Source: a virus
DNA: 41,408 nucleotides
Reading direction: 5' to 3' (one strand)
UHGV virus genome: UHGV-1354657
The first letter of the stretch is position 1. The number at the start of each line of letters is the position of its first letter. The notes under the pieces are model-generated. The model was not told where the DNA came from. It saw only the letters and a program-made list of their open reading frames with translations, and searched no databases. A program made the translations under genes and the position numbers. Shown here piece by piece: positions 2,796 to 8,067 of the stretch.

Positions 2796-3128
2796 TTACT
2801 TTTTCTTAGTCTTATTTCTTCTATTTCTCTCATTGTATATATTTAAATTCTCTTCTTTTATAGTGACATCAGATAAAATTTGAGTTAGTATATCACTTAA
2901 TAATTTACTAACGTCGCTGTTCATATCAATAGAAAAAGATTTTAATTTGTTTACAAGCTCCTCATCAAGCGTTGCACTCATAGTCACTTTTTTACTTTTC
3001 TTATTAACTAAATTATATATGTTTAATGTCTTATTGTCTGTAGTTGTAGAATCATTTTGTGCGATTGTTCCATTTTTCAAAATCGGTTTTTCCTTATCAA
3101 CTAAAAGGTCTCTGTTGAAACTTGGCAT
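2796..3128 (-). CDS. ParG/CopG-like ribbon-helix-helix partition (centromere-binding) protein
   Basis: 110 aa; the RHH-like segment KKVTMSATLDEELVNKLKSFSIDMNSDVSKLLSDIL. Its ATG abuts the parA stop (TAGATG), so it is translationally coupled downstream of parA. Confidence 0.55.
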   Translation of the reverse strand: MPSFNRDLLVDKEKPILKNGTIAQNDSTTTDNKTLNIYNLVNKKSKKVTMSATLDEELVNKLKSFSIDMNSDVSKLLSDILTQILSDVTIKEENLNIYNERNRRNKTKKK

Positions 3129-3938
3129 CTATAACACTCCTTTTCTTTTCAATTCTTCTAACATATTAGTAAATTCCTGTCTGCTGAAATGCTCTTTAGT
3201 TATTTTTGTATAATCTGTTAGAGATAGTTTTTTCAATAGTGCCTTCTCTATAAACTCATTTTTTCTAATGTATGTATCTAACATAATATCCCTCATATCG
3301 TTAAACCCTTCCAGATAAGAATCGAAAGTATCGCTAATTTGAGTTTTCTTCTTCTCAAATCCAACTAAAATAGTACTTTTTATATTATCCTCCTTATCAA
3401 AATAGGTTCTATCAACATCCCAGAGTTGTTTAAATAATTCTGCTCCTCTTAAAGAAGAAATGTTTTTATCTTGAATTGGAATAATTATACTATCTGCTAA
3501 GAAAAGCACATTTTTAGCTGTCAAATCGTAGCGTGGAGATAAATCACAGATAATATAATCATACTCACTCAAAGTATTAAAGTTTTGCATGTACCAGCGA
3601 GCTAAAAATTTTTCTCTGGCTGGTAAAGGTGATAGCTCTTGTTCAAATCTAGCCATTTGTATGTCAGAAGGAATTAAGTCTACATTAATGTAATTTCCAT
3701 TAGGTGACTTGACTATTGCATCATTAGCACTAATCCCTTTTAAAATATCTAATGTAGTATTATCATTATGATTTATTTCATAAACATATTGTGTTAGATT
3801 TGCTTGCACATCTAAGTCCCATAAGAGTATTTTTTTATCTTTATCTTTCGCAAGTTCATACGCTGTCATTATAGACGTTGTTGTCTTATAGATACCTCCT
3901 TTTATGTTAAAGTACGTAAGTAGCTTTGTATTAGCCAT
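3129..3938 (-). CDS. parA: ParA/Soj-family partition ATPase
   Basis: Deviant Walker A NIKGGIYKTTTS, then DLDVQANLT and the usual ParA layout. ATG at 3938 is preceded by GAGGTGGAG (the track starts at an upstream GTG). Confidence 0.85.
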   Translation of the reverse strand: MANTKLLTYFNIKGGIYKTTTSIMTAYELAKDKDKKILLWDLDVQANLTQYVYEINHNDNTTLDILKGISANDAIVKSPNGNYINVDLIPSDIQMARFEQELSPLPAREKFLARWYMQNFNTLSEYDYIICDLSPRYDLTAKNVLFLADSIIIPIQDKNISSLRGAELFKQLWDVDRTYFDKEDNIKSTILVGFEKKKTQISDTFDSYLEGFNDMRDIMLDTYIRKNEFIEKALLKKLSLTDYTKITKEHFSRQEFTNMLEELKRKGVL

Positions 3939-3949
3939 TTTCTCCACCT

Positions 3950-4178
3950 CATTATTATATTTATAATATTATAACAATATTGTAGTATTGTTTTTATAAT
4001 ATTGCAACAATATATTAATATTGTTAATTACAATATTCAAATAATATAAATACAATATTTACATATTGCTTTTACAATACCAATATATTATATTAAAAAT
4101 ACTAAAATATTGTATATACAATACTAAAATAATATTTTTATAATATTACAGTATTATTTTTATATTATAGTAAAATTT
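3950..4178. repeat. parS-like centromere/operator array of ACAATAT / ATATTGT heptamers upstream of parA
   Basis: At least 10 copies in both orientations, including the palindrome ACAATATTGT and ACAATATattaATATTGT. This is typical for the site bound by an RHH ParG-type protein and the par promoter. Confidence 0.55.
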
Positions 4179-4216
4179 AAAAAAAAGAAGGCTAAGAAAA
4201 AAAGCAACCTTCTTTT
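4179..4216 (-). terminator. Rho-independent terminator of the peptide-AbrB operon
   Basis: GAAGG...CCTTC stem. On the minus strand it is followed by a run of 8 T; it sits immediately downstream of the 4227-4409 gene. Confidence 0.6.
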
Positions 4217-4226
4217 ATAGAAAAAG

Positions 4227-4409
4227 TCATTCATTCTTAGCCTTTTCAATTATTATCCTGTCGCCCTCGAATGTTGCCGTAACATTAGGGTTTTCTCTTG
4301 TTATGCCCATTTCATCAGCCCATCTCTTGGGAACACTCATTCTAGGGGTAAACGACCCACTCCCACCCCTGTGAAAATTAAATTTTAAATTTCTTTTTTC
4401 TTTTTCCAT
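4227..4409 (-). CDS. AbrB/MazE/SpoVT-family swapped-hairpin DNA-binding protein
   Basis: 60 aa; motif RMSVPKRWADEMGI...GDRIIIEKA typical of the AbrB-N fold. RBS AAGGAG sits 7 nt upstream, and the stop of the upstream peptide gene lies 3 nt before this ATG. Confidence 0.7.
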   Translation of the reverse strand: MEKEKRNLKFNFHRGGSGSFTPRMSVPKRWADEMGITRENPNVTATFEGDRIIIEKAKNE

Positions 4410-4412
4410 TCG

Positions 4413-4574
4413 TTAACTCCTTTTTTGCTGTATTACAAAGAAAAGTAATAATACAACACTAAAAACTAAACCGAGTATGTTGCTTGTACTAGAGTTTAAT
4501 GCTATAGATACTATATTTAAGACTATGGTTATCAAAACTAAAACAATGCAAATCTTATAAAATTTATCACTCAT
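4413..4574 (-). CDS. Small hydrophobic membrane peptide (53 aa, 2 predicted TM segments), translationally coupled to the AbrB-like gene
   Basis: MSDKFYKICIVLVLITIVLNIVSIALNSSTSNILGLVFSVVLLLFFVIQQKRS. Its stop TAA (4413-4415) overlaps the RBS of the AbrB gene. It is below the 60-aa cutoff of the ORF track. Confidence 0.45.
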   Translation of the reverse strand: MSDKFYKICIVLVLITIVLNIVSIALNSSTSNILGLVFSVVLLLFFVIQQKRS

Positions 4575-4647
4575 GTTTTTTAGAAATGTGTTATAATATT
4601 AGAAAGAAGTCACCTAGAGAGAAGGGCTATTCCCTCTAGGCTTATCC

Positions 4648-4776
4648 TTACAGTTCTTTCAAAATTCTTAGAACTGCGAGGATTATGTTAAGTAATAATA
4701 GGATGAAGGAGAAAACTTTTTTAACTATGTTAAATTTGTTTTCTCTCTTCTTTTTACTTCTTTCTAACCTCCCCAT
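4648..4776 (-). CDS. Small cationic-hydrophobic membrane peptide (42 aa), first gene of the peptide-AbrB operon
   Basis: MGRLERSKKKRENKFNIVKKVFSFILLLLNIILAVLRILKEL. RBS AAAGGAGG 8 nt upstream. Promoter TTGTTT-17-TGGTATAAT on the minus strand at about 4846-4875. Confidence 0.45.
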   Translation of the reverse strand: MGRLERSKKKRENKFNIVKKVFSFILLLLNIILAVLRILKEL

Positions 4777-4837
4777 TCCTGTGCCTCCTTTCTTTTATTT
4801 TTTTTGCTTTCTCACCTCCTTCTCTATAAATATATTA

Positions 4838-4880
4838 TACCATGACGGGTCGTCAAAAACAATAGTTTTCTCCTATTTTT
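4838..4880 (-). promoter_or_regulatory. Sigma-A promoter (extended -10) for the small-peptide/AbrB operon
   Basis: Minus-strand sequence TTGTTTTTGACGACCCGTCATGGTATAAT, followed by a purine-rich leader carrying two SD-like GGAGG motifs. Confidence 0.5.
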
Positions 4881-4920
4881 TAAACAAATTTTGGTAAAAA
4901 GTAAAGATTTTAGTATATTA

Positions 4921-5085
4921 GAAATGATGTAAAATTGTATCTTTTTTTAAAAAATGTGATATAATAAAAGCAAGGAAATAATGATTTACTTTACACAAGA
5001 GTAGCTATTTCCAATGTTTTGAAAAATAACTTATTTTCTTAAACCACTCTTATTGGCGTTTGAGTGGTTTTTTAATTTTATCGTT
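4921..5085 (+). ncRNA. sRNA unit 1: promoter plus about 100-nt transcript plus intrinsic terminator; paralog of the type I antitoxin-like RNA
   Basis: Extended -10 TGATATAAT (4958-4966), predicted TSS about 4973, terminator CCACTCTTATTGGCGTTTGAGTGG followed by TTTTTT (5044-5074). The unit repeats (about 165 bp) at 5131-5300. No coding potential. Confidence 0.5.
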
Positions 5086-5130
5086 CTTAAAATAAACTTT
5101 GATAAAAATAAAAAAAAATAGAATACTGAA

Positions 5131-5300
5131 AATGATGTAAAGTTGTATCTTTTAAAGAAAATGTGATATAATAAAAGCAAGAGAACTGTATTCTAGTCAT
5201 AAGAGTAGAGTTTTAGTCTAAAATAAAAAATTATTTAAACTTTTTGAATTTGATTCTCAAATCAAATTCCCAACCACTCTTTTGCGCAGAGTGGTTTTTT
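5131..5300 (+). ncRNA. sRNA unit 2: antisense RNA overlapping the 3' end of the toxin-like peptide gene (type I antitoxin candidate)
   Basis: The same promoter, GAAAATGATGTAAAGTTGTATC...TGATATAAT (5165-5173). Terminator CCACTCTTTTGCGCAGAGTGG plus TTTTTT (5274-5300). It overlaps the minus-strand CDS 5231-5383 over about 70 nt. Confidence 0.55.
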
Positions 5301-5383
5301 ACTTGTCTAAATAATTTGCTAATTATATAGAATATTAAACTAGCTATAACACCAGCTAATACATTAAGTAAAAAATTATCCAT
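5231..5383 (-). CDS. Type I toxin-like small membrane peptide (50 aa)
   Basis: MDNFLLNVLAGVIASLIFYIISKLFRQVKNHSAQKSGWEFDLRIKFKKFK: an N-terminal TM helix with a charged tail. Strong RBS GGGAGGTGA, partly sequestered by the upstream CCTCCC. A convergent antisense sRNA covers the 3' end. Confidence 0.55.
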   Translation of the reverse strand: MDNFLLNVLAGVIASLIFYIISKLFRQVKNHSAQKSGWEFDLRIKFKKFK

Positions 5384-5497
5384 ACTTCATCACCTCCCTT
5401 TGTAGCGTTGGGAGGATAATCTTTTGTGTATAGACTCCACTCTTTTTTTAGAATATAGATTGCTTTCTCTTGCTAAAATTATTATAACATATATTTA

Positions 5498-5534
5498 CAT
5501 AAAAAAAGACTTAGTTTATATACTAAGTCTTTTA
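5498..5534. terminator. Bidirectional rho-independent terminator
   Basis: AAAAAAAGACTTAGTttataTACTAAGTCTTTT. It insulates the toxin promoter from the helicase control region. Confidence 0.65.
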
Positions 5535-5605
5535 AAATGCAGTATTTTAGAAAATATATTTTTAAAATATAATTTATTTTCAAAAAGAGTATATTTTTTT
5601 ATAAT

Positions 5606-5901
5606 TTAAATGTGCTATAATTATAATCACAACGAACAGAAAACTTTTTTTTAATTGGTTTAAAAAAATCTACAAAAAAATAAACAAGGAACATGTACTT
5701 GCCGTCAAACAACCATGTTCCTTACACCGGAGGTTAGACCTCTCTTAAGGATAATATATCCTTGTTTTTCTATACTTATATTTATATTATAAGACAAAGT
5801 GTAGAAAAACACAAGGTTTTTAGGGTAATTTTAATAGTAAAATTATTACAAAAAATCAAAAAAAGAGCGTCAGCCTCCAGGTAAAAAATGGAGGGATAAA
5901 G
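5606..5901 (+). promoter_or_regulatory. Promoter and about 270-nt structured leader of the helicase gene (attenuation/RBS-sequestration candidate)
   Basis: Extended -10 TGCTATAAT (5613-5621). A perfect 10-bp hairpin AAGGAACATG-N18-CATGTTCCTT (5686-5722). Hairpin GGAGGTtagACCTC (5728-5742). A weak terminator-like hairpin plus a T-run (5746-5770). CCTCCA...TGGAGG overlaps the RBS (5873-5896). Confidence 0.5.
5670..5779 (-). ncRNA. Predicted countertranscript antisense to the helicase leader
   Basis: Minus-strand promoter TTGTGT-17-TATAAT (plus-strand coordinates 5809-5814 and 5786-5791). The complement of leader hairpin 1 is followed on the minus strand by GTTTATTTTTTT, an intrinsic terminator. 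Predicted length about 110 nt. Confidence 0.4.
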
Positions 5902-8067
5902 ATGGAAAATAATAATAAAAATAATATAGATAAGATGTTTTTAGAAGAATGTAGCGCTGAAAGAGCAGAGCATGAAAAAGAAAATTATTCAAATTTCAAT
6001 AGACATGAAACATATGAAATAAAAAAATATATAAACGAAAAAAAACTAGGAATTAAAACGGCTATAGCCAACGCGATAAATGGCGGGAAAACCCTGTTTA
6101 TTGCACCGACAGGAGCAGGAAAAAGTTATAGCTTTATAAATACATTAAAAAAATTAAAAACAAAAGCGTTATTCATACTTCCAAATGCCTCAAATGTAGA
6201 GCAGGCAATGCACGAGTATGATATACCAGGAGCATATGACAAAATACCTGTTAGCGAAGCATTTAAAAGTGGCAACTTAGTTGTAATGACTTGGGATAAA
6301 ACCGAAAAACTTATAAATACAGACTTAAGTGAATACATAATTGTAGTTGATGAGATACATCAAACTTATACAGATGCATATCGAGGAAAAGCAATAAAAA
6401 ATTTAAATAATATAATGTCTAAGTGCAAAGGAAGAATAGACATTACAGCAACACCAACAAAACTTGAATTTGAAATATATGACTACATAATAGAGTACAC
6501 TCAAAAGCAAAAAACAGAATATAAAGTTAAATTGTACAACGACTTTGACAATAAAAATTTTACTGAAATGATTAACATAATAAATAAATCTAAAAACAGC
6601 GCCATGTTGATGAATGATATATCAACATTAGAATTTATAAGAGATTCAGTGAACAAAAAAGTTGGAGTTGTATATGCAGATGGAAAAGAAGAAAATGAAT
6701 TGTACAATAGAATAGTTAAAAATTCAGACATGAAAGACTATGAAACGCTTTTAAATACAACAACAATCCTAGCTGGTGTAAATATAAACAACAAAGATAT
6801 CACAGATATAATTATTGTTAATATAAAAGATGTTGGAGCTATAAAACAGTATGTTGCGAGGTTTAGAAACTTAAAAAAAGTAAATGTACACATATTCAAT
6901 AAATATGAAGAAGAGTGCAATGTATACAAAATTGAATGGCTAGTTAACAAAAATATAGAAAAAGCAACTATCTTAAAAGATGCTTATAACAAAGTATCTA
7001 AACACATGTTACAGTTTGAAACAGTTGGAATAAATGCAACGCCAATTCGCATAGACTCAAATGTGTACTACTGTACAAAAGATAATTGCTATAAAGTAGA
7101 TAAATTATATATAAAAAGTCAAGTTTACAGCAACTATTACAATACAAGAACAATTCAAAGTTTTAAAGTGCTATTAGAAGAATATTTTGAAAATGTTAAT
7201 ATAACTGATGCTAAAGAAGTTGGCACAAATGAAAAAGAGTTAAAAGAGTACAAGAAAGTTGTAAAAGAAATTAAAGATGCAACAAGAGAAATTTTAAAAG
7301 AACATAAAGAAATTCTAGTAGGTTATAGACAGATTAAAAGCGATTCTAAGAGCTTTTCACTAATGCAGTATCATAATGATATGAAACTAAGTTCAAAAGG
7401 GTGCTTAGAGGCTTACAGAGCGTATGACATACATAATTTGGTAAAGAAAAGTAAAAGTAATAGCATGTTAGAACTATATTCTAATTATGTACTAGATAAT
7501 AAGTTCGACTTAGACCTTGCGTGGAAATTAGCAAATTTATCAAATCGAAAGCGTGGAGCAGTATTTAATAAAATAAATACTTTGATATATAGAGAATTAA
7601 AAGAAGAATGCCCAGAATTTTTAAATGATGAACTTATTCAAGTTACAGTATTTAATTTCATAGATAAGCTATTTGGGATTGGAACATCTTATACAGAACT
7701 TCATTTACAAGAGTTAAGTAACGACTTAAGAACGTTTTTAGGAGAGAATTGGGGGTTAAACACTAAAAAAATAGGTTGTATATTGAACGAAATTTTCGTA
7801 ATAGAAAAGAAAAAATATAGAAGTGTGAACCACTTAGAAAATATCTTTTTTTATAAAAATATGAATCCTAAGTGGTTCACAGTAGAAGTTAAACAAATAC
7901 AACTTAGCAATATAAAAAGATATGTAACTGTTGATGACATAAAAAAAGAATTAGAATTAGATAAAAAAGATAATAGCTTAGAGCGTGCTATAAAATATAC
8001 AAAAGATAGAATGTTAAACTCTTTAGATGAAGATGAAAAACTATTGCTATTAAAAGGATTGATGTAA
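5902..8067 (+). CDS. Superfamily-2 (DEAD/DEAH-box-like) helicase with a roughly 370-aa C-terminal domain of unknown function; candidate replication protein
   Basis: Motif I APTGAGKS, Ia LFILPN, II VVDEIH, III TATP, V TTTILAGVNI, VI QYVARFRN. RBS TGGAGGGA. No match to a named Rep family recognised from sequence alone. Confidence 0.8.
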   Translation: MENNNKNNIDKMFLEECSAERAEHEKENYSNFNRHETYEIKKYINEKKLGIKTAIANAINGGKTLFIAPTGAGKSYSFINTLKKLKTKALFILPNASNVEQAMHEYDIPGAYDKIPVSEAFKSGNLVVMTWDKTEKLINTDLSEYIIVVDEIHQTYTDAYRGKAIKNLNNIMSKCKGRIDITATPTKLEFEIYDYIIEYTQKQKTEYKVKLYNDFDNKNFTEMINIINKSKNSAMLMNDISTLEFIRDSVNKKVGVVYADGKEENELYNRIVKNSDMKDYETLLNTTTILAGVNINNKDITDIIIVNIKDVGAIKQYVARFRNLKKVNVHIFNKYEEECNVYKIEWLVNKNIEKATILKDAYNKVSKHMLQFETVGINATPIRIDSNVYYCTKDNCYKVDKLYIKSQVYSNYYNTRTIQSFKVLLEEYFENVNITDAKEVGTNEKELKEYKKVVKEIKDATREILKEHKEILVGYRQIKSDSKSFSLMQYHNDMKLSSKGCLEAYRAYDIHNLVKKSKSNSMLELYSNYVLDNKFDLDLAWKLANLSNRKRGAVFNKINTLIYRELKEECPEFLNDELIQVTVFNFIDKLFGIGTSYTELHLQELSNDLRTFLGENWGLNTKKIGCILNEIFVIEKKKYRSVNHLENIFFYKNMNPKWFTVEVKQIQLSNIKRYVTVDDIKKELELDKKDNSLERAIKYTKDRMLNSLDEDEKLLLLKGLM

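Follow-up and report, generated by a model that had tools for sequence, protein, structure and literature searches.

In type I toxin-antitoxin systems such as hok/sok of plasmid R1 and aapA1/IsoA1 of Helicobacter pylori, the toxin mRNA is held by a 5′-3′ long-distance lock, and in bsrG/SR4 and txpA/RatA of Bacillus subtilis prophages the antisense RNA acts via mRNA structure or degradation rather than by covering the Shine-Dalgarno (SD) sequence. Here we describe a cassette of three small genes on the minus strand (4862-4179) of a 41,408-nucleotide (nt) stretch of viral DNA (UHGV virus genome UHGV-1354657; hereafter the window) that resembles these systems. It comprises pep1, which encodes a small membrane peptide of 42 amino acids (aa) and whose mRNA is predicted to fold back on itself and to meet an antisense RNA, pep2, which encodes a second membrane peptide, and a gene for an AbrB-like protein. 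Because a small membrane peptide gene, a self-closing mRNA and a convergent antisense RNA of ~150 nt together make up the type I signature, we favour, at a probability of roughly 0.5, the reading that the cassette is a type I-like toxin module to which a second membrane peptide and a dedicated repressor have been added.

The window represents a phiCD38-2-like Clostridioides difficile phage-plasmid, since the 1.4 kb round the cassette are 96-98% identical to slur17, CDSH1 and phiCD38-2, which are C. difficile siphophages of the genus Leicestervirus, and circular C. difficile plasmids of 33-42 kb are equally close over the same region. In phiCD38-2, the 60-aa open reading frame (ORF) of the AbrB-like protein is listed as gp31, 'hypothetical', and that of pep1 as gp32, 'putative membrane protein', while the 53-aa ORF of pep2 carries no annotation; among the records inspected, pep2 is annotated only in phiCD111 and phiCDKH01, and a pep2 homologue is also called in Hain-Saunders-2022a. 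Some RefSeq plasmids name gp31 'PemI' or 'AbrB/MazE/SpoVT family', and PHROGs places all three genes in unassigned or 'membrane protein' families, with pep1 in PHROG 5134 (function unassigned) and pep2 in PHROG 11497 ('membrane protein'). The sole appearance in the searchable literature is the genome note on phiCDKH01, which calls the AbrB homologue 'putative PemI' or 'transcriptional regulator', and the transcriptome papers on JD032 (PMC7205517), CDHS-1 (PMC8619979) and AcrIB2 (PMC10732046) do not resolve the cassette region. Neither the databases nor the searchable literature assign the cassette a function, in agreement with an earlier note on this DNA that had recognised no described module in the gene order. 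Within the literature searched, the cassette as a unit, together with its RNA and operator features, appears undescribed.

Three small genes form one conserved unit

The earlier note had read, from the letters of the window, a minus-strand promoter with an extended −10, a purine-rich leader with two SD motifs, a cationic and hydrophobic peptide, a structured spacer, a peptide with two transmembrane (TM) segments, an AbrB-fold protein and a terminator, and each of these elements is present (Table 1). The promoter carries a TGNTATAAT extended −10 and is conserved in all cassettes. The leader motif UAGA.AAGGAGG is invariant in alignment A2, three clades have a single SD, and the second AGGAGG lies 7 nt ahead of the pep1 ATG. 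The spacer between pep1 and pep2 measures 73 nt and holds a 12-bp hairpin, the stop codon of pep2 ends 3 nt before the ATG of the AbrB gene, and AAGGAG lies 7 nt upstream of that ATG.

The earlier note had made its reading depend on the conservation of the peptide ORFs in related elements, and conservation is what we found. The ratio of nonsynonymous to synonymous substitution rates (dN/dS, Nei-Gojobori) was 0.08-0.42 in nearly all informative pairs for all three ORFs, with 0.08-0.31 for pep1 in close and moderately diverged pairs, 0.13-0.42 for pep2 and 0.74 in one saturated pep1 pair. Substitutions in pep1 ranked position 3 > position 1 > position 2, and the peptide is 42 aa long in all seven compared C. 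difficile cassettes and in nearly all database clusters, which span 41-54 aa as called. As judged from these substitution patterns, all three ORFs are real genes under purifying selection. Given the low dN/dS and the conservation of promoter, hairpin and a block of the spacer across cassettes whose proteins are only 38-47% identical, the arrangement goes beyond chance.

Searches of fetched relatives by tblastn recovered the same trio in the same order in Hain-Saunders-2022a, with 38, 44 and 43% identity for pep1, pep2 and the AbrB-like protein, and the same trio in the Sherbrookevirus phages phiCD08011 and CD2301, while the integrase phage phiCDKH01 carries two tandem cassettes between endolysin and integrase. 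Used as a DNA probe against IMG/VR, the invariant spacer block found 43 sites, and every true cassette not cut by a contig end (37 of 37) carried all three ORFs in the same order, which supports one operon-like unit. Five of the 43 sites were discarded as promoter-plus-SD sites of another kind, made up of the promoter and leader of unrelated genes.

The cassette reaches beyond phage-plasmids, to which the earlier note had assigned it. Chromosomal copies lie at prophage ends next to endolysin, singly or as 2-3 diverged tandem copies; an 8.2-kb plasmid of Terrisporobacter mayombei holds two tandem cassettes, and a metagenomic prophage holds one between a cI-like repressor and endolysin. The peptides of the Terrisporobacter plasmid and of the metagenomic prophage have lost the hidden Markov model match and have kept size, charge pattern and order. 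The pep1 variants and the AbrB variants were each found on at least ~1000 C. difficile contigs.

Table 1 Features of the cassette in the window, in order of minus-strand transcription
Feature	Coordinates	Strand	Details
Promoter	4834-4862	−	−35 TTGTTT 4862-4857, 17-nt spacer, extended −10 TGGTATAAT 4842-4834; predicted start ~4827
Palindrome TGACG-ACC-CGTCA, predicted operator	4843-4855		In promoter spacer, abuts −10
Purine-rich 5′ leader	4777-4827	−	AGGAGG at 4820-4815 and 4789-4784
pep1, 42 aa, phiCD38-2 gp32, proposed toxin	4648-4776	−	ORF
Long-range helix, 5′ arm UUAGAAAGAAGU, pep1 codons 4-7	4756-4767	−	Exact reverse complement of 4610-4599
Helix within pep1 ORF, GAGAAAAC...GUUUUCUC	4709-4745		Read on the plus strand, hairpin followed by UCUUCUUUUU, predicted antisense terminator
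12-bp GC-rich hairpin right after pep1 stop	4612-4641	−	Fold −21.1 kcal/mol, z −3.6
Long-range helix, 3′ arm ACUUCUUUCUAA	4599-4610	−	Inside the best-conserved non-coding block
Predicted antisense promoter, extended −10 TGTTATAAT	4589-4597	+	TG 4589-4590, TATAAT 4592-4597; predicted start ~4603-4605
Predicted cis-antisense RNA, ~150 nt	4604-4754	+	Covers block, hairpin and pep1 from codon ~8 to stop (4754-4648)
pep2, 53 aa, two hydrophobic segments, no SD	4413-4574	−	ORF
60-aa AbrB/MazE/SpoVT-fold protein, gp31, proposed autorepressor	4227-4409	−	Own SD AAGGAG 4422-4417
Intrinsic terminator of the operon	4179-4214	−	12-bp stem, then U8

Two small membrane peptides

Both peptides are hydrophobic and shorter than 60 aa, as is usual for type I toxins. 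The net charge of pep1 is +8 and is concentrated in its first 20 residues, giving a polybasic N-terminus, and the peptide is hydrophobic from about residue 17 to its C-terminal end (11-residue windows starting at 17-32), the C-terminal half forming a hydrophobic, amphipathic helix. No match above cutoff was found for pep1 or pep2 in Pfam or NCBIfam, PADLOC returned nothing, and neither peptide matches NF047374, the C. difficile type I toxin family (cutoff 60 bits). Pfam holds no holin family match either, and the cassette is on the strand opposite to the lysis genes and next to parA. From its composition, pep1 is most likely a membrane-damaging toxin.

No SD precedes pep2 in any copy. Since pep2 lies 73 nt behind the pep1 stop and has no SD of its own, its translation probably depends on ribosomes that finish pep1. 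As a candidate sense promoter for pep2 and the AbrB gene, the TTGACT...TATAAC of the spacer was rejected for its spacing of 12 nt, and read-through from the pep1 promoter is therefore assumed for both genes. The earlier note had also proposed that translation of the AbrB gene is coupled to that of pep2; the 3-nt spacing is as described, but the AbrB gene has its own SD where pep2 has none, so coupling is inferred from spacing only.

Opposite pep1, the plus strand holds a 70-aa ORF (4685-4897) that is called 'putative membrane protein' in phiCD111. We rejected it as a gene: neither its start nor its end is conserved and the substitutions match the frame of pep1. Its annotation is probably mistaken, the ORF being open only through the pyrimidine bias of that strand.

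Predicted fold-back of the pep1 transcript and predicted convergent antisense RNA

Every cassette has retained the hairpin behind the pep1 stop, with a wholly different stem sequence in two distant cassettes, L011 and L013 (L009, L011, L013, L019-L021, L040 and L042 are labels of compared loci). The hairpins of these two fold at −13 to −22 kcal/mol (z −3.4 to −6.3). In an alignment of seven sequences, pairing of the hairpin reaches 98.8%, and four pairs are compensated; MAFFT did not align L009a, L011 and L013 correctly in this part, and their hairpins were for this reason judged by folding and not by pair counting. Wobble pairs in this hairpin and in the long-range helix described below are G.U in the sense orientation and never A.C, which argues that the hairpin acts in the pep1 mRNA.

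The ~40 nt after the hairpin form a block, GACTTCTTTCT.A.ATTATAACA.A.TTTCT, that is nearly invariant even where the flanking proteins are only ~40% identical, and this block contains the exact reverse complement of pep1 codons 4-7. A complement of 9-16 nt that starts 6-13 nt after the start codon is found in almost every cassette; in shuffle tests, most gave p ≤ 0.005, and the shortest complements gave 0.06-0.15. Its 9-bp core is invariant in the C. difficile copies, and the helix covaries in the distant cassettes, where AAGAAACAAAAG pairs with CUUUUGUUUCUU over 12 nt in L013 and AAAGAAAUAAAUCCAA pairs with UUGGAUUUAUUUCUUU over 16 nt in L011; in L040, an A-to-G change leaves 8 nt of perfect complement and a sense-strand G.U pair. 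The minimum free energy fold of the 236-nt pep1 transcript (−64.6 kcal/mol, z −4.9) includes the long-range helix. The whole structure is 84% paired compared with 45-56% in slid controls, shows 11 compensated pairs and was reached in 0 of 500 shuffles, and the helix within the pep1 ORF is 82% paired with 3 compensated pairs.

A self-blocking mRNA structure is a mark of type I toxins, and the long-range helix would provide one: with its beginning only 8-9 nt past the AUG, it should make ribosome loading harder. This pairing within the sense mRNA is better supported than, and takes the place of, the CCUCC motifs opposite the leader that the earlier note had proposed as an RNA feature. As the long-range helix needs RNA that extends at least 15 nt past the hairpin, the hairpin is a leaky terminator at best and is better seen as a 3′ structural element of the pep1 mRNA. 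A separate observation concerns the conserved block, which as CUUCUUUCUA (4599-4610 and relatives) is one base off the 3′ end of Firmicute 16S rRNA, which we take to be CUCCUUUCUA. In some predicted folds the block pairs with the first SD of the leader and not with pep1 codons 4-8, and it may mimic an anti-SD that can choose between two partners.

The plus-strand TTATAAT that the earlier note had pointed out as a possible promoter turned out to be a perfect and conserved extended −10, with a terminator-like hairpin at about +140. It reads TGTTATAAT in all C. difficile cassettes and in L013 and GCTTATAAT in L011, and in each case 5-7 nt separate it from the sequence complementary to the long-range arm. 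A hairpin with a U-rich tail follows at +134 to +152 from the predicted start in nine of nine cassette types tested. The predicted antisense RNA would fold at −45.5 kcal/mol (z −4.4), its 5′ end being a single-stranded tail complementary to the block, followed by the hairpin. A search of Rfam (E ≤ 1) over 3500-6000 gave only two chance-level matches, and no family fits the predicted antisense RNA.

An AbrB-like protein and a promoter palindrome that varies with it

The earlier note had assigned the 60-aa protein to the AbrB swapped-hairpin fold and had suggested a profile search as a check, and an AlphaFold2 model and Foldseek bear the assignment out, in line with the matches of family members in that search. 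PF04014 matches the window protein at E 0.0083 (16.5 bits, below the 24.7-bit gathering cutoff), but it is matched by 39 of 58 family members at E < 0.01, the best at 3.3e-8. The family comprises 81 clusters in 5.8 billion proteins, nearly all from Clostridioides or Terrisporobacter, and its profile, searched against PDB sequences, reaches the archaeal plasmid protein C56 at 5e-4, AbrB-N at 6e-4 and MazE at 0.012. The model (predicted local distance difference test score 88) has the topology beta-beta-alpha-beta-beta, with strands at residues 10-14, 20-24, 43-48 and 51-56 and a helix at 28-34, and its top Foldseek matches are MazE 2mrn (probability 0.98), AbrB-N 1yfb (TM-score 0.60/0.68), SpoVT and VapB, with E-values that are weak, as is expected of a 60-aa monomer taken from an intertwined dimer. 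Since the family matches to PF04014, the PDB profile matches, the predicted topology and the structural neighbours agree, the assignment to the AbrB/MazE/SpoVT swapped-hairpin fold is sound.

In the cassette clade, the protein ends ~4 residues past its last strand, and only a few distant aligned sequences have short extra C-terminal residues, so the C-terminal toxin-binding extension that marks AbrB-type antitoxins of type II systems is missing; nor does the gene adjoin a toxin of a known family such as MazF or PIN, its neighbours being membrane peptides. As a DNA-binding domain without a C-terminal tail, the protein is unlikely to be the protein antitoxin that the earlier note had considered, and autorepression is its likelier role. 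AbrB homologues at a greater distance lack the peptides: one sits behind ParB in P. sordellii pCS1, others belong to phiCD211 and C. perfringens pCQ92, and Fusobacterium phages have them under the name 'SymE'. With the peptides absent, they were rejected as cassette members.

The 41-kb window holds a single copy of the palindrome TGACG-ACC-CGTCA, the one in the promoter spacer, compared with 0.09 sites expected. Fifty distinct cassettes show six palindrome variants, each found with one AbrB clade and always abutting the −10. Symmetry is exact in five of the six, both half-sites having changed together, and the sixth has one mismatched position. Given with the loop of the AbrB-like protein, the variants are TGACG-NCC-CGTCA (loop GGSGSFTPR), TGACGT-A-ACGTCA (SGSGSxGTK), TCACGT-C-ACGTGA (SGKGSFTPR), T(T)ACG-N3-CGTA(A) (SGNGY[TY]T[TP]R, including the Terrisporobacter and metagenome copies), TGCCG-GTT-CGGCA (GGSGTYSAK) and TATCGT-C-ACGTTA (SGCGS), the last being the one with the mismatch. 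An RNA terminator was rejected as an explanation of the palindrome, as no U-run follows it on either strand. Double changes that keep the symmetry, seen repeatedly, point to a site bound by a dimer, and the AbrB-like protein is the sole DNA-binding protein that travels with the palindrome, which makes it the candidate binder; the palindrome is thus likely the operator to which a dimer of this protein would bind.

Tandem arrays of 2-3 diverged cassettes occur at L042 377-2100, L009 1850-3170 and L011 2100-3300. The fact that each cassette in them has its own palindrome and AbrB variant suggests that the tandem copies are free of cross-talk.

Genomic neighbourhood

The cassette in the window adjoins parA and lies ~20 kb from the late genes. 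It also stands beside a bona fide type I toxin-antitoxin pair (PMC7699646): just upstream on the minus strand, gp33 (5383-5231) matches NF047374 CD_typeI_toxin at 94.3 bits and was described as the toxin-antitoxin module of the phiCD38-2 parA region (Peltier et al. 2020). The three genes of the cassette are not part of the gp33 module. Convergent to gp33, within 5131-5383, a plus-strand unit with an extended −10 (TGATATAAT, 5164-5172) and a terminator in the toxin ORF (5272-5296, with a T-run) is the probable RCd-like antitoxin of gp33. A near-duplicate of this unit at 4924-5080 shares its promoter block (TGATATAAT, 4957-4965), ends in a related terminator (~5043-5076) and overlies a decayed toxin remnant, a minus-strand ORF (5180-5031) that ends in ...KLKNHSNANKSG...; situated between gp33 and the cassette promoter, it looks like an orphan antitoxin with a pseudo-toxin. 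The 1.65 kb of 3968-5621 hold 8 of the 16 TGNTATAAT extended −10 motifs of the window, on both strands, where 5.6 are expected for the whole window; small convergent transcription units are densely packed here.

Between the cassette terminator and parA (3947-3129), positions 3950-4180 contain AT-rich iterons, ACAATATT or TACAATA, often spaced 22 or 44 nt start-to-start and with many inverted pairs, which are a probable centromere or parA operator. Right after parA, a minus-strand ORF of 110 aa (2796-3128) matches an Arc-like repressor PHROG over residues 45-77 (E 6e-5) and probably encodes the ribbon-helix-helix centromere-binding partner of a type Ib partition system. A link of the cassette to the parA centromere was rejected, as the cassette occurs without parA.

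In C. difficile chromosomes, L019-L021 each carry a single cassette between a Mn-catalase gene and genes for a cell-wall-binding protein, an amidase and Abi_2. The phi027-type prophage end with the published AbiF/RCd22 system is laid out in this way, and RT027-type strains may on this ground carry the cassette.

Discussion

We propose a model in which the strong sigma-A promoter would drive pep1, pep2 and the AbrB gene as one unit, and the AbrB-like protein, as a dimer, would bind the palindrome in the promoter spacer and repress its own operon. Transcripts that extend past the hairpin would close through pairing of pep1 codons 4-8 with the block and would then have the initiation region of pep1 occluded, while the ~150-nt antisense RNA would meet the block with its complementary 5′ tail and cover with its body the hairpin and pep1, leaving free only about the first seven codons of the latter. 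The expression of pep1 would thus be silenced at three levels, by repressor, mRNA lock and antisense RNA. The second peptide would be made only when pep1 is translated and would be the partner of pep1 in the membrane, conferring immunity or sharing in the effect. The cassette would keep its carrier, be it phage-plasmid, prophage or plasmid, stable or would kill infected cells, and its contexts fit a maintenance or abortive role: beside parA and a type I pair, on a tiny plasmid, and as diverged tandem copies at prophage ends.

Several points weigh against this model. Each of its functional steps is derived from sequence comparison and prediction, and a repressor made from the same operon cannot alone account for killing once the element is lost. 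The basic N-terminus and hydrophobic C-terminus of pep1 are the reverse of the known C. difficile type I toxins, and pep1 matches no toxin family in Pfam, NCBIfam or PADLOC. In the predicted antisense terminator, C breaks up the U-tract, which is partly a by-product of purine-rich Lys, Arg and Glu codons on the other strand. The match between operators and AbrB clades could reflect inheritance as a block, that is, linkage, rather than recognition, and the role of pep2 as partner or antidote of pep1 is a guess. A more specific version, to which we give a fairly low probability, is a hybrid, tripartite addiction module in which a pep1 toxin, its mRNA locked by a hok-like fold-back and targeted by the antisense RNA, would be answered in the membrane by a pep2 antidote made only by ribosomes coming off pep1 and in which the AbrB repressor would have diversified with its operator, leaving tandem copies independent. 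If true, such a module would join type I RNA control, type II-style autoregulation and a peptide-peptide antidote.

The cassette might instead be a lysogenic-conversion 'moron', in which pep1 and pep2 would be non-toxic and would block superinfection or defend the lysogen, acting on DNA injection or incoming holins, at a level set by the AbrB-like protein. The chromosomal copies at prophage ends by lysis genes and facing outward, the filing of pep2 by PHROGs under 'moron, auxiliary metabolic gene and host takeover', and the prospect that diverged tandem copies widen specificity all speak for this, but a fold-back lock and a convergent antisense promoter are typical of harmful products and not of constitutive exclusion proteins, an 8.2-kb plasmid carries two cassettes and almost no other cargo, and no PADLOC model matches, which leaves the moron a doubtful explanation. 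The leading idea of the earlier note, a classical type II toxin-antitoxin system in which the AbrB-like protein neutralises a peptide, with reversed gene order as in higBA, draws on the names PemI or MazE family in some records, on the pep2 stop and AbrB start being 3 nt apart or overlapping in most copies, and on the predicted palindromic operator in the promoter, an arrangement typical of type II autoregulation. We consider it unlikely: the candidate partner is an integral membrane peptide and not a soluble toxin of a known family, the AbrB-like protein stops ~4 residues past its last strand with no toxin-binding extension, pep2 and the AbrB gene of L013 are separated by ~60 nt and a hairpin, and more distant AbrB homologues stand alone elsewhere.

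That pep1 and pep2 would form a holin/antiholin-like pair serving lysis timing is highly improbable, for the cassette is transcribed opposite to the lysis genes, lies in the window beside parA and ~20 kb from the late genes, occurs on a non-phage plasmid and matches no holin family, even if small peptides with one and two TM segments near endolysin and holin genes of integrated prophages would suit such a role. Hydrophobic ORFs arise readily in AT-rich sequence, and pep2 is omitted from most annotations and has no SD, so that both peptides might be chance frames beside a real AbrB gene; conservation contradicts this, with dN/dS of 0.08-0.4 for both peptides, a pep1 fixed at 42 aa in the compared C. 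difficile copies with substitutions ranked by codon position 3 > 1 > 2, and both peptides kept at 38-44% identity and always with the AbrB gene, and we give the idea next to no credence. In L011 and L013, pep2 has only 25-33 aa and one TM segment.

The type I-like module that we favour would matter for several reasons. The cassette is very common, and although epidemic-type prophages, phage-plasmids and small plasmids all carry it, its annotation does not go beyond 'hypothetical' or 'PemI'. Should pep1 prove to be a toxin, the cassette would found a new family among the type I-like systems that stabilise C. difficile mobile elements, and the C. difficile type I systems have already been turned into counter-selection tools. 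The cassette would also be a compact natural case of three stacked controls, namely the predicted repressor, mRNA fold-back lock and antisense RNA, and its operator/repressor pairs appear to diversify together, which makes them tractable for the evolution of specificity. Genes of the pep2 type, below 60 aa and without SD, are systematically missed by annotation.

Compared with known systems, the AbrB-like protein shares the fold and size of the DNA-binding domain of MazE, VapB and PemI but not their toxin-binding tail, shares the same domain with AbrB and SpoVT but not their C-terminal domain, and differs from AbrB-N, Abh, MazE, VapB, PemI and C56 in a longer G-x-G loop between strands 1 and 2. 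Like omega-epsilon-zeta and paaR-paaA-parE, the cassette as modelled here combines three small genes in one autoregulated operon with a regulator distinct from the neutralising partner, whereas in those systems the toxins are soluble enzymes, all partners are proteins, the regulator comes first and there is no RNA layer. With hok/sok and aapA1/IsoA1 it has in common a small membrane peptide gene, a start region paired with a 3′ segment, a location on mobile elements and, as a prediction, a short cis-antisense RNA from a strong promoter. It shows no sequence relationship to them, and its predicted antisense RNA overlaps the 3′ end instead of the start region, its lock needs read-through of the hairpin, and pep2 and the AbrB repressor are co-transcribed. 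The prophage-borne bsrG/SR4 and txpA/RatA likewise have an antisense RNA over the 3′ end, as predicted for the cassette, but are not homologous to it and have neither a co-transcribed regulator nor a second peptide. Closest in setting are the C. difficile type I systems, one copy of which (gp33) lies 450 nt away; they occur in the same hosts and elements, with toxins below 55 aa, an extended −10 on both strands, a convergent antisense RNA of ~100-150 nt over the 3′ part and a role in prophage and plasmid maintenance, of which the RNA is predicted and the role proposed for the cassette. In contrast to them, pep1 and pep2 fall outside NF047374 and charge and hydrophobicity of pep1 come in the opposite order, and they have no second peptide or dedicated repressor where the cassette has both. 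What the cassette would add to the known type I systems is, first, an AbrB-type repressor that is transcribed with the peptides and whose predicted operator covaries with it and, second, another membrane peptide.

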